64,000 bases of DNA from Candidatus Daviesbacteria bacterium (GTDB taxonomy: Bacteria; Patescibacteriota; Microgenomatia; Daviesbacterales; UBA10151), in contig JACPDA010000005.1 of NCBI GenBank assembly GCA_016184225.1, positions 67,590 through 131,589 of the forward strand, given 5' to 3'. Positions 16,782-18,116 of the stretch are shown here, one piece after another. Each line of letters begins with the position of its first letter. Within the stretch, counting starts at the first letter, position 1. The notes beneath the pieces are model-generated. The model was not told the DNA's origin. It saw only the letters and a list, made by a program, of their open reading frames with translations, and did not search any database. A program made the position numbers and the translations under genes.

Positions 16782-18116
16782 TTATATAGATATATATTCT
16801 TCTCTTTTGGGGCCGGTGGAGATGAGTTTAATTGGGATCCCTAGAAACTTTTCTATAAACTTTATATAATCCTGGCAGTTTTTTGGCAGGTCTTTGAAGT
16901 TTTTAACTTTCATAATGTCTTCCTTCCATCCGGAAAATTCCTTGTAAATGGGAGTTAGTTTTTCCAATTCTACATATCCGCAACTGCTGTAAGGGATTTT
17001 ATTAGGTTGCTTCGTCATCCTTCGACTTCGCTCAGGACTCCTCGCAATGACGGAAGGAGGAAGTTCGTATCCTACACAAATCTTAATTTTCTTAAGTCCT
17101 GATAGAATATCGATTTTGGTTATAGCAATTTCTGTGACCCCGGAAACTTCACAAGCAAACTTAACTGCTTCTAAGTCCAACCAACCAACCCGTCTTGTCC
17201 TACCGGTGGTAGTACCAAACTCTGCCCCTTTTTGCTGAAGTTCCGCACCTAGTTTATCAGTTAACTCAGTGGGGAAAGGTCCGCTGCCAACCCGGGAAGT
17301 GTAAGCTTTAACTACTCCTAAGATATCGCCAATTTTTTGAATCGGTATGCCGGCACCGGTATTTACCATACCGGGGATGGTGTTAGAACCGGTTGAATAA
17401 GGGTAAGGGGAAAAGTCCAGATCCAGCATAACTGCTTGAGCCCCCTCCATAAGAATATTTTTTTTCTGGGCTACGGCTTTTTGCAAAAGCTGAAAAGTAT
17501 CCGTAACAAATGGGAGGACTATTTTCCTAAGTTCCGAAATTTTTTCTAATTCTTTATTGATGTTGATTGGGGTAACTTTAAAAGTCTTGAGAATTTCATT
17601 TTTTATTTTGGTTTGGAATTTAAATTTTTCTACAAACAAATCCCAATTTTTTAATTCATAAATTCTTATCCCATTGTAACTGGCTTTATCAGAATAAGCC
17701 GGCCCAATGCCTCGTCCTGTTGTTCCCAATTTACCTTTGCCTCTGGCATTCTCGTATGCCAAATCTAAAGCTTTATGGTAAGGCAAAATGAGATGGCATC
17801 TATCCGAGATAAATAGTCTTCCGGCTAACTTAACGCCGTCCTTAGTAAACATCTCTATTTCAGAGACTAGAACTTCTAAATCAATGATTACCCCATTGGC
17901 GATTACGCAATTTGCCTTAGGGTTGAGGACTCCGGAGGGGATTAAGTGAAGTGGGTATTTTTTACCATTTACCACAATGGTATGGCCGGCATTATTGCCG
18001 CCTTGGAATCGGACAACATAATCTTTGCTTTCCGCCAGCAGATCGACAATTTTACCTTTGCCTTCATCACCCCATTGTGTACCGACTATCACAGATACGT
18101 TGCTTGGCATGGACAA
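16782..18116 (-). CDS. purA: Adenylosuccinate synthetase
   Basis: GDEGKGK P-loop and NAGHT motifs. Carries an in-frame palindromic repeat insert ([14 protein letters not shown]). Confidence 0.9.
17014..17051. repeat. Family 1 full palindromic copy (GTCAT…ATGAC), in-frame inside purA
   Basis: On the coding strand: gtcattgcgaggagtcctgagcgaagtcgaaggatgac, translated [13 protein letters not shown]. Confidence 0.7.

Follow-up and report, generated by a model that had tools for sequence, protein, structure and literature searches.

Why does the gene for adenylosuccinate synthetase (purA) from a Candidatus Daviesbacteria genome carry, in frame, a short DNA sequence that recurs elsewhere in the same region? 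The question is raised by a segment at positions 17014-17051 of the window, which is the whole stretch of DNA that was analyzed (64 kb); statements on repeats at the level of the genome rest on these 64 kb. With a probability of roughly 75%, we consider the segment a noncoding DNA repeat of the repetitive extragenic palindromic (REP) type, belonging to the CGTC-tagged superfamily, which lies in frame at the tip of a beta-hairpin, is translated there and spread as single-stranded DNA. The segment is an insertion with a nested architecture, its core has dispersed copies, its loop recurs across phyla, and the purA frame is intact. The locus has the following features:

16782-18116, minus strand: purA, the host gene, an intact, full-length open reading frame (ORF) of 444 codons for amino acids
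17004-17060, minus strand: the whole inserted block, 57 nt or 19 codons, PurA residues 353-371
17004-17052, minus strand: the outer CGTC-tagged unit, CGTC-ATTGC-GAGGAG-[apex]-GACGAA-GCAAc-CT, with its tag at 17052-17049
17018-17037, minus strand: the family-1 core, forming the apex of the outer unit, TCCT-GAGCGAAGTCGA-AGGA

PurA matches Pfam PF00709 (Adenylsucc_synt) over the complete profile (positions 1-416 of 416, E 4e-170). It is 100% identical to an NCBI protein from Candidatus Daviesbacteria (P0001, encoded on a 133.8-kb contig), and the remaining 119 best matches are PurA proteins from Daviesbacteria or Patescibacteria. The 120 best orthologs, query aside, were aligned. An insert-free pattern, ...GY[KE]L-NGK-x-I-P-Y-SSCGY..., is found in 108 of them, and most have about 425 residues. 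The segment at 17014-17051 reads GTCATTGCGAGGAGTCCTGAGCGAAGTCGAAGGATGAC on the purA coding strand, where it is translated as a peptide of 13 residues, and GTCATCCTTCGACTTCGCTCAGGACTCCTCGCAATGAC on the plus strand; the reverse complement of the latter is the sequence quoted in the original prediction. This peptide is no conserved part of PurA; among the 120 orthologs, it occurs only in the identical P0001. The prediction had placed a repeat in frame inside an otherwise conserved part of PurA, which is borne out by the dispersed copies of the core, by the alignment of the 120 orthologs and by codon-level comparison. The extent it gave, 17014-17051, has to be corrected. Codon-level comparison with L001 (CTT|AAC GAA AAA...) and L003, together with the protein alignment, sets the limits of the block, which by reference to the insert-free orthologs spans 17004-17060. 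The Leu codon CTT and AAT AAA flank it, and the net gain is 17 residues. L001, which has a PurA with 86% identity and a syntenic purine operon, lacks the insert.

One might suspect that the repeat was placed in purA by an error of assembly or binning, since short repeats can cause misassembly and the window is from a metagenome-assembled genome. The frame is, however, exactly kept, the identical protein is known from NCBI and from an independent Logan assembly, and inserts are found at the same codon in ten other assemblies. We assign a negligible probability to such an artefact.

The insert site is structurally permissive. When PurA is aligned to the Yersinia enzyme (PDB 3hid, E 2.6e-118), the site (...CVGYRMPDG--R--EVDTTP...) corresponds to the turn of a beta-hairpin. 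The AlphaFold2 model of PurA has a mean predicted local distance difference test score (pLDDT) of 81.6 and a confident strand at residues 343-351. The pLDDT is below 50 for residues 363-369, and the 10-residue block 361-370 averages 46. To judge from the intact frame, the insert would be transcribed and translated with purA, resulting in a flexible, Arg-rich loop of 19 residues. It would be tolerated there as it sits in a hairpin turn, has a length divisible by three and is read in one of the three stop-free frames (of six, by hand translation of the 57-nt block). Because only three of the six frames are open and the length must be a multiple of three, the in-frame state is what selection on an intact purA would leave. 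The effect of the insert is probably neutral or mildly deleterious rather than useful.

CGTC-tagged REPs are the reference for what follows. REPs have been divided into two superfamilies, GTAG and CGTC, according to their unpaired head (Di Nocera, De Gregorio & Rocco 2013, BMC Genomics 14:522; PMC3733652). In CGTC units, the head reads CGTC, TGTC or CCTC, the stem begins with A,T and comprises 8-9 bp, the loop measures 4-5 nt, and the tail is close to CCA. They frequently form dimers, occur in several phyla, are sometimes intragenic and apparently lack a dedicated transposase (PMC3733652).

On sequence comparison, the purA insert is a nested composite, in which a family-1 hairpin replaces the usual mini-hairpin of 6-8 nt at the apex of the outer unit. 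On the purA coding strand, the outer unit extends from the GTCAT head to ...GACGAAGCAACC (17006); its inner arms are rich in G and A, and it also occurs in the ortholog P0008 (locus L003, PurA 79% identical). Its tag is ttcCGTCATTGCG (17052-17049, minus strand), and a second CGTC-AT head (17013-17018, plus strand, with CGTC at 17013-17016) belongs to the inner unit and precedes the family-1 core. With the centre bracketed, the window insert reads CCT CCT TCC GTCATTGCGAGGAG[TCCTGAGCGAAGTCGAAGGATGA]CGAAGCAACCT, and the P0008/L003 insert, with identical codon position and frame, reads CCT CCT TCT GTCATTGCGAGAAG[CGAAGCGA]CGAAGCAATCT. The family-1 core is a gain of 15 nt over L003 and adds the residues PERSR. 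The GTCAT and ATGAC termini had been taken as the ends of a single 38-nt element. Both are present, but they belong to two nested units: the outer unit has the 5' GTCAT as its head, and the 3' ATGAC(G) combines the 3' arm of the inner hairpin with the GAC of the outer unit.

A metagenome scan for the outer arms, allowing a spacing of 10-40 nt, detected these arms with variable centres in at least 120 loci. The 131 different centres share no sequence relationship, and many of them are small hairpins; a terminal stem of at least 3 bp is present in 51 (9 expected) and one of at least 4 bp in 27 (2.7 expected). The centre CGATCCTGAGCGGAGCGAAGGATCGC corresponds in kind to the apex of the purA unit in the window. 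Among the 147 metagenome copies of the outer unit, 93 lie outside long ORFs; orientation and frame of the 147 copies showed no usable bias. On metagenome contig L141, 8.8 tandem copies of a 121-nt unit (3908-4975) form a clustered array of REP dimers, with two outer repeats in inverted orientation per unit (GGATTGCTTCGCTTCGCTCGCAATGAC ... GTCATTGCGAGGAGCGCTTTTTGCGACGAAGCAATCC).

The core is dispersed between and inside genes, in both orientations and in different frames. With up to three mismatches, TCCTGAGCGAAGTCGAAGGA has four matches in the window, compared to a mean of 0.00 in 100 dinucleotide shuffles, so that the predicted recurrence is confirmed. Two matches are exact (2045-2064, plus strand, and 17018-17037, minus strand), one has a single mismatch (43513-43532, minus strand) and one has three (27353-27372, minus strand). 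There are two additional copies with indels, at 1721-1740 (TCCTGAGCGAAG-CGAAGGA, without the T) and at 13373-13400 (CCCTGAGCGAGCGGAGCAAGTCGAAGGG). The "four other places" that had been counted for the core are thus about right, with three detected by mismatch and two by indel. Altogether, the window contains six family-1-type units and three inverted dimers of a second family (family 2), and six of these nine are intragenic. Besides the purA copy, these are:

1716-1743, plus strand: family-1 unit, TGTC-ATCCT-GAGCGAAGCGA-AGGAT-CTA, containing the folD stop codon TGA (1724-1726)
2040-2068, plus strand: family-1 unit, GGTC-ATCCT-GAGCGAAGTCGA-AGGAT-CTA, intergenic, 15 nt past the stop codon of a ybaB-like gene and before recR (Pfam)
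12653-12715, plus strand: family-2 dimer, two opposed CGTC/TGTC-tagged hairpins in the inter-domain linker of purL (residues 540-560), DNA fold z -3.55
13373-13400, plus strand: family-1-like unit with a longer loop, in purL, translated as PERAEQVEGP (residues 780-789)
27353-27372, minus strand: diverged family-1 core, CCCTGAGCGTAGTCGAAGGG, in the gap of a convergent gene pair with stop codons ending at 27352 and 27375
43513-43532, minus strand: family-1 core with one mismatch, antisense to ssb, translated as SFDSAQD (residues 165-171)
61078-61143, plus strand: family-2 dimer, in a linker of the M1 peptidase gene (Pfam), residues 496-518, z -6.34
61670-61734, plus strand: family-2 dimer, in the M1 peptidase gene, residues 694-715, z -4.99

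The tags of these other copies are TGTC (1716, 61078), CGTC (12653, 61670) and GGTC (2040). The intragenic copies are all located in loops, linkers or tails, and their reading frames differ, giving PERSRR, SFDSAQD, PERAEQVEG or RHSGE[QR]SDSRI. The ssb copy is in the C-terminal tail, outside of the OB domain (residues 7-106). The unit at 1716-1743 is positioned between folD and the ybaB-like gene, both identified by Pfam. An ATG in the frame of the ybaB-like ORF, at 1747, follows 7 nt after the 3' arm AAGGA of this unit. ATG 1747 is likely the true start, so the repeat may serve as ribosome-binding site of this gene.

That the extra loop is an adaptive, lineage-specific feature of PurA, for example a new interaction surface, would be compatible with an insert that is in frame, Arg-rich and on the surface. 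The peptide is, however, confined to the query and the identical P0001, and unrelated peptides are found at the same place in other lineages. One DNA core yields PERSRR, SFDSAQD or PERAEQVEG in different proteins and is also intergenic. As it is read in several frames and also occurs between genes, the conserved entity is the DNA and not the peptide. We thus consider an adaptive origin very unlikely.

Families 1 and 2 were suspected to form one superfamily, and this is supported by their shared sequence: the head is identical and the GA-rich loop essentially so, and the stem is longer in family 2. The left unit of family 2 is [C/T]GTC-ATTCTGG-G GAGC(G/A)(C/A)AGCGA C-TCCAGAAT-C. The ...RMT translation noticed in both families is explained by AG[GA]ATGAC(N), the reverse complement of the CGTC-AT head, being read in one frame. 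The left unit of the dimer at 61078-61143 has a longer hairpin, TTCTGCAAGGCAGAA, at its apex, similar to the arrangement in the purA composite. With z from -3.5 to -6.3, the folding of the family-2 copies is clearly superior to that of shuffles.

Repeat load differs sharply between close lineages, as L001 has a single tagged-hairpin match in 21 kb of syntenic sequence, a non-repeat chance match (0.8 expected), while the window has several repeats in those genes. The PERAE[QL]VEGP unit in purL is common to the window and L001 (PERAELVEGP) but is not found in L003. The purL linker site is occupied by the family-2 dimer in the window and by another repeat (VILSTAKNL...) in L003, and no repeat is present there in L001.

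Further lineage-specific stretches were observed in the purine genes. A different palindromic family is represented in purL at 13557-13616 (residues 841-861), with GTCAC-CTCGGAGGTG... and a 10-bp stem, inserted as HLGGVTSSHLRGDRMGSSEVE. In L003, purL has HLEGVKAHLRG at this site and again near the N-terminus; L001 has neither. An in-frame insertion in purL at 13748-13783, YGNKTSLPLRDK, is absent from L001 and L003. Another in-frame insertion is found in guaA, where a GC-rich stretch at 14958-15008 (ATGDKRSLRPSGLRPQF; GCGGAGCTTGCGACCTAGCGGTCTTAGGCC) exceeds its counterparts in L003, L006 and L009 by about 10 residues.

Different fillings are found at the purA site itself. Apart from P0001, 11 orthologs have other repeat-derived inserts at the same codon, and these are scattered over a neighbour-joining tree that is only weakly resolved. 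The fillings include:

VIARSEATKQS: P0008
VIPAKAGIH: P0024 and P0067
HTVIPA[KY]AGIY: P0078 and P0114
VIPASSSVIPAKAGIH: P0002 and P0090, with the close variant VIPISSVIPEKAGIH in P0100
SVIPTSSSVIARSETTKQS: P0051
GPERSRR: P0079, a bare family-1 core, CCCGAGCGAAGTCGAAGGG

For P0002, the closest insert-bearing ortholog, no contig carrying its gene was located. From the insert to the conserved Tyr there are 4, 5 or 6 residues, depending on the insert class. The left leaders also vary by class (CCT CCT TCC / CCT / CCC / CCA CCC CAC A / CCG ACA GGC). Since both junctions and leaders differ between insert classes, several independent events can be argued for. Filled and empty alleles can be compared at close range in two cases. 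P0078 (filled) and P0118 (empty) are 91% identical, and their differences are evenly spread along the gene apart from the indel. P0067 (filled, L009) and P0077 (empty, L353) have 95% protein identity. Their purA DNA is 100% identical over nt 60-960, but over the remainder of the gene, starting some 50 nt ahead of the insert, the identity is 57-86%, and the downstream genes differ. This mosaic suggests that filled alleles may also move by homologous recombination, unless one of the contigs is chimeric.

The same data bear on the alternative that a single old insertion was remodelled by gene conversion, with other copies of the genome as donors, and then spread among Daviesbacteria by recombination of 3' segments of purA. 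The query, P0008 and P0051 share the leader LPPS/LPSS, the body VIARS...TKQ[SP] and the right junction NK-I, yet they are not neighbours in the tree. Shared inserts in proteins that are not tree neighbours are likewise seen for P0078/P0114 and for P0090/P0100, and the P0067/P0077 mosaic also fits this scenario. It is at odds with the class-specific right junctions and left leaders. The even divergence of P0078 and P0118 speaks against it as well, so that several independent events would still be needed. We consider a single insertion less likely than not.

How widespread is the core? The 18-mer CCTGAGCGAAGTCGAAGG occurs without mismatch in at least 120 GTDB species genomes from many phyla, among them Acidobacteriota, Bacteroidota, Alphaproteobacteria, Saccharibacteria and other Patescibacteria, Chloroflexota, Verrucomicrobiota, Planctomycetota and Cyanobacteria, and also in 101 IMG/VR viral contigs. 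By our own arithmetic, about 17 occurrences would be expected by chance (uniform composition, 596 Gb, both strands). At several loci, copies are arranged in tandem or inverted. Watson-Crick pairing is possible between the bases on either side of the 18-mer in 105 of 133 cases, compared to 57 expected (C-G 61, T-A 34, G-C 10). In a test anchored on the loop (GAGCG-N-AG(T)CGA), complementary flanks of at least 4 bp directly adjoin the loop in 94 of 167 unique instances, compared to about 14 upon permutation of the partners; matches selected by pattern were excluded from this test. A MAFFT alignment was not used for covariation, because copies without the T are out of register and the sequences had been pre-chosen for pairing; the permutation is the unbiased test. 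The stems around the loop vary widely (ATTGC, ATCCT, GTGCT, CGCACT, CCCT, GGCT, ATGCT and others). With complementary flanks and such differing stems, the loop is the conserved part, while the stems covary. Across phyla, the core is preceded by GTCA[TC] (17), CTCAT (8) or CCTG[CT] (36). An all-against-all comparison of ORFs revealed no protein family that recurs beside the core in the 120 loci, the largest cluster being present in 9.

The loop holds a clue to the form in which the element may spread. GCGNAGC is present in the 1716-1743 copy and in most cross-phylum relatives of the ATTGC and ATCCT types. This heptamer is very stable as DNA and far weaker as RNA: d(GCGAAGC) has a melting temperature (Tm) of 76.5 C, compared to 39 C for r(GCGAAAGC) (PMC13037366). 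This is the reason for suspecting a single-stranded DNA route.

It has also to be considered that the hairpin is kept in purA for a role at the RNA level, as mRNA stabiliser, barrier to RNase or translation pause, similar to REPs downstream of genes. Many REPs have been argued to be transcribed and to act as RNA elements near the 3' ends of genes (PMC3733652). In the window, 7-8 of the 9 units have the orientation of the host or preceding gene, and the units at 1716-1743, 2040-2068 and 27353-27372 are right at gene ends. As RNA, however, the purA stretch does not fold better than shuffles (see below), and the conserved apex is much more stable as DNA. Moreover, most orthologs, including those with 86-95% identity, lack an insert, and the inserts found at the site are unrelated in sequence. 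For purA, we regard a function of the RNA as unlikely.

Under the reading that we prefer, a CGTC-tagged DNA repeat, new copies would arise at the DNA level via single-stranded hairpin intermediates. The agent could be a trans-acting HUH-type enzyme or the host machinery for replication and repair. An existing unit may attract further units or be overwritten, as suggested by nesting, replacement and tandem half-copies. Filled alleles may, in addition, pass between lineages by homologous recombination. Unit-on-unit targeting and allele exchange together would make the purA codon a "hot spot".

It is tempting to speculate that the GAGCG-N-AG(T)CGA units represent a distinct, undescribed CGTC branch, built around an ultra-stable mini-hairpin of single-stranded DNA with G.A pairs on both sides, with free stems, without a transposase of its own and targeting the apex of other units. 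This idea is tentative, and we would rather bet against it. If it is true, GA-loop units would build up nested repeats, would repeatedly remodel the same surface loops of housekeeping enzymes in the gene-dense genomes of the Candidate Phyla Radiation (CPR) and would be a general, ongoing source of new loop sequence.

Several points weigh against the attribution of the purA segment to a mobile CGTC-tagged repeat. (i) The purA stretch folds no better than shuffles with ViennaRNA (z -0.3 and +0.2 as RNA, +0.2 and +0.6 as DNA). The designation as "palindromic" in the original prediction is thus appropriate in a weak sense only. (ii) The loop of the purA copy has an extra T (GCGAAGTC) and departs from the canonical GCGNAGC mini-hairpin. 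(iii) Translation of the insert is concluded from the intact frame. (iv) No target-site duplication or other insertion scar was found at the filled/empty pair L351/L352, so transposition is not demonstrated; TATA[AG]A is present on both sides of the insert, but also twice in the empty allele. (v) The inserts of the query, P0008 and P0051 probably share one origin, the scatter of the inserts depends on the weak tree, and the P0067/P0077 mosaic could be an assembly chimera. (vi) A Pfam scan revealed no transposase among the 47 proteins of the window, which covers only 64 kb of the genome; there is specifically no match to Y1_Tnp. (vii) The stem is shorter than the 8-9 bp of described CGTC units, with five Watson-Crick pairs in the outer unit (ATTGC/GCAAT) and five in family 1 (ATCCT/AGGAT). 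Helices in these units are longer only if G.A pairs are assumed. The right-hand units of family 2 have stems of 7 bp, and the canonical units in relatives have 8 bp. (viii) The loop is longer than 4-5 nt, with 11-12 nt in family 1 (GAGCGAAG(T)CGA), while the outer unit encloses 6 nt, the apex and another 6-7 nt. Canonical units in relatives have GAAG or GAAA loops.

If the attribution is correct, in-frame "selfish" palindromes in essential genes, which are known from Rickettsia and few others, extend to the Candidate Phyla Radiation, the genomes of which have little intergenic space. The purA site is a natural experiment, with one enzyme codon, at least five different fillings in related lineages, and empty alleles at 91-95% protein identity. 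These fillings make it testable how CGTC-REPs move without a transposase and if existing hairpins serve as landing pads. The cross-phylum loop containing GCGNAGC points to a mechanism that involves single-stranded DNA. For annotation, it is relevant that repeat units create spurious peptides and length variation, which can mislead the annotation and alignment of CPR proteins. The interest thus lies in a CPR example, in a nested variant around a conserved mini-hairpin loop, and in one codon with many fillings.

Other features of the window were noticed. (a) Tandem heptamers, (AAAGTGC)n, (AGGTTAC/AGGGTAC)n, (AGGGTAT)4 and (CTAGAGT)n, recur at or near gene boundaries, with arrays at 21805-21847, 60219-60253, 48885-48913, 49119-49147, 50202-50230, 56068-56096, 44023-44083 and 50621-50653. 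(b) Two paralogous small genes (24956-25456 and 59013-59507) code for a PaaX central Cas2-like domain. The latter is bracketed by 42-nt direct repeats (58968-59009 and 59501-59542), each with a hairpin having an 8-bp stem; the second repeat reads TGTCACATTTGT-ACCACGATCGGAGG-ACAAATGT on the lower strand. (c) Three tandem units of about 105-160 nt (39802-40281), with 64-77% identity, are located in an ORF without a Pfam match (38978-40378). (d) A gene on the minus strand (51635-52045) codes for a "23S rRNA intervening sequence protein" (PF05635). (e) The ribosomal proteins S18 (125 aa, 43637-44014) and L31 (108 aa, 50273-50599, minus strand) are much longer than their Pfam-matched parts. (f) A search against Rfam 15 returned only a tRNA-Leu above the gathering thresholds, and none of the repeat copies is overlapped by a match at E values up to 5. 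The core has some visual similarity to a hammerhead (CUGA...GAA) and to a box C'/D' K-loop; these candidates were rejected, as the core positions misfit and Rfam gave no match.

In the literature, a search with the exact sequences retrieved no relevant paper, and none was found on in-frame palindromic repeats in Patescibacteria. Palindromic elements reportedly described from Rickettsia by Ogata and co-workers (2000, Science; 2002, Genome Res), the RPE-1 family, are said to be about 100-150 bp long, to code for 30-50 residues and to be confined to this genus. They resemble the element described here as they are palindromic, inserted in frame into unrelated housekeeping genes, translated, surface-exposed and without a known transposase. 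While in-frame insertion is thus common to both, size and taxon differ: the units have only 20-35 nt, the block has 57 nt, and the core is shared across phyla.

The GTAG REPs and REPINs with their REP-associated tyrosine transposases (RAYTs) (Nunvar 2010; Bertels & Rainey 2011, PMC3116915; Ton-Hoang 2012) are also short, GC-rich hairpins with a conserved 5' tetranucleotide, often form inverted pairs and are presumed to be mobile in single-stranded form. Their head is GT(A/G)G, and the RAYT gene has the same REPs on its flanks. The heads found here are, however, CGTC or TGTC, and there is no RAYT or Y1 protein in the window or beside the 120 core loci. Furthermore, it is the apical loop that is conserved here, while the stems vary across taxa. 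Transposable elements of the miniature inverted-repeat type (MITEs; reviewed in PMC10969869) are likewise small, nonautonomous, dispersed and occasionally in frame in genes. The purA element differs by the lack of terminal inverted repeats matching an insertion sequence and of a target-site duplication at L351/L352, and by its far smaller units. An assignment to GTAG/RAYT REPs, MITEs or RPE-1 was thus rejected on the basis of head, transposase, duplication, size and taxon.

The DNA mini-hairpins d(GCGNAGC) and d(GCGNNAGC) (Hirao and co-workers; reviewed in PMC13037366) are a structural motif rather than a repeat family. The consensus loop GAGCG-N-AGCGA contains an exact GCGNAGC, flanked by GA on both sides, and only N is variable. 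The GA/GA flanks could form tandem sheared G.A pairs. The purA copy, having the extra T, does not contain the exact heptamer.

The CGTC-tagged REPs are the closest relatives. CGTC-1 corresponds to dRS3 from Neisseria and to RPE-6 from Rickettsia (conorii), and CGTC-4 corresponds to RPE-4 (PMC3733652). VIPAKAGI, the peptide of intragenic CGTC-1 units from R. conorii and Chlorobium chlorochromatii (PMC3733652 supplement), is also found in five PurA orthologs (P0002, P0024, P0067, P0078 and P0090). Where available, the DNA of these inserts, such as the L008 unit TGTC-ATTCCCGC-GAAG-GCGGGAAT-CCA, has every hallmark of CGTC-1. The window units share with CGTC REPs the unpaired CGTC/TGTC head, and both the outer and the inner unit in purA have the tag. 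The A,T start of the stem and the short 3' tail are matched in part. In the outer unit of the window (ATTGC...GCAAc), the second pair is broken by a T to C exchange; the 3' arm is intact (GCAAT) in L003 and in metagenome copies, and the units at 1716 and 2040 have ATCCT...AGGAT. The tail, mostly CCA in described units, is CCT after GCAA in the window purA and CTA in L003 and in the 1716 and 2040 units; CCA is found in L141 and in the canonical units of L005-L009. As for CGTC REPs, many dispersed copies, inverted dimers and intragenic copies occur within the 64 kb of the window, near-identical units are found in distant phyla, some are translated, and alternative REPs occupy one site. Different REPs at about one site have been reported for recB from Xanthomonas, as have REPs inside small palindromes (PMC3733652). 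An associated transposase is lacking in both cases, here among the 47 window proteins and at the 120 core loci, which is negative evidence from limited sequence. The purA element differs by its nesting, with one unit in the apex of another, by its host, as CPR/Patescibacteria were not sampled in 2013, and by its peptides, since VIAR, PERSRR, LSEAK and TKQS are not in the list of intragenic units (PMC3733652). Because CGTC-tagged REPs, including intragenic copies, have already been described (PMC3733652), the purA element is not a new class. It has the head and, in part, the A,T start but deviates in stem and loop and codes for unlisted peptides, and it is thus considered a new variant, outside of the four described CGTC families.

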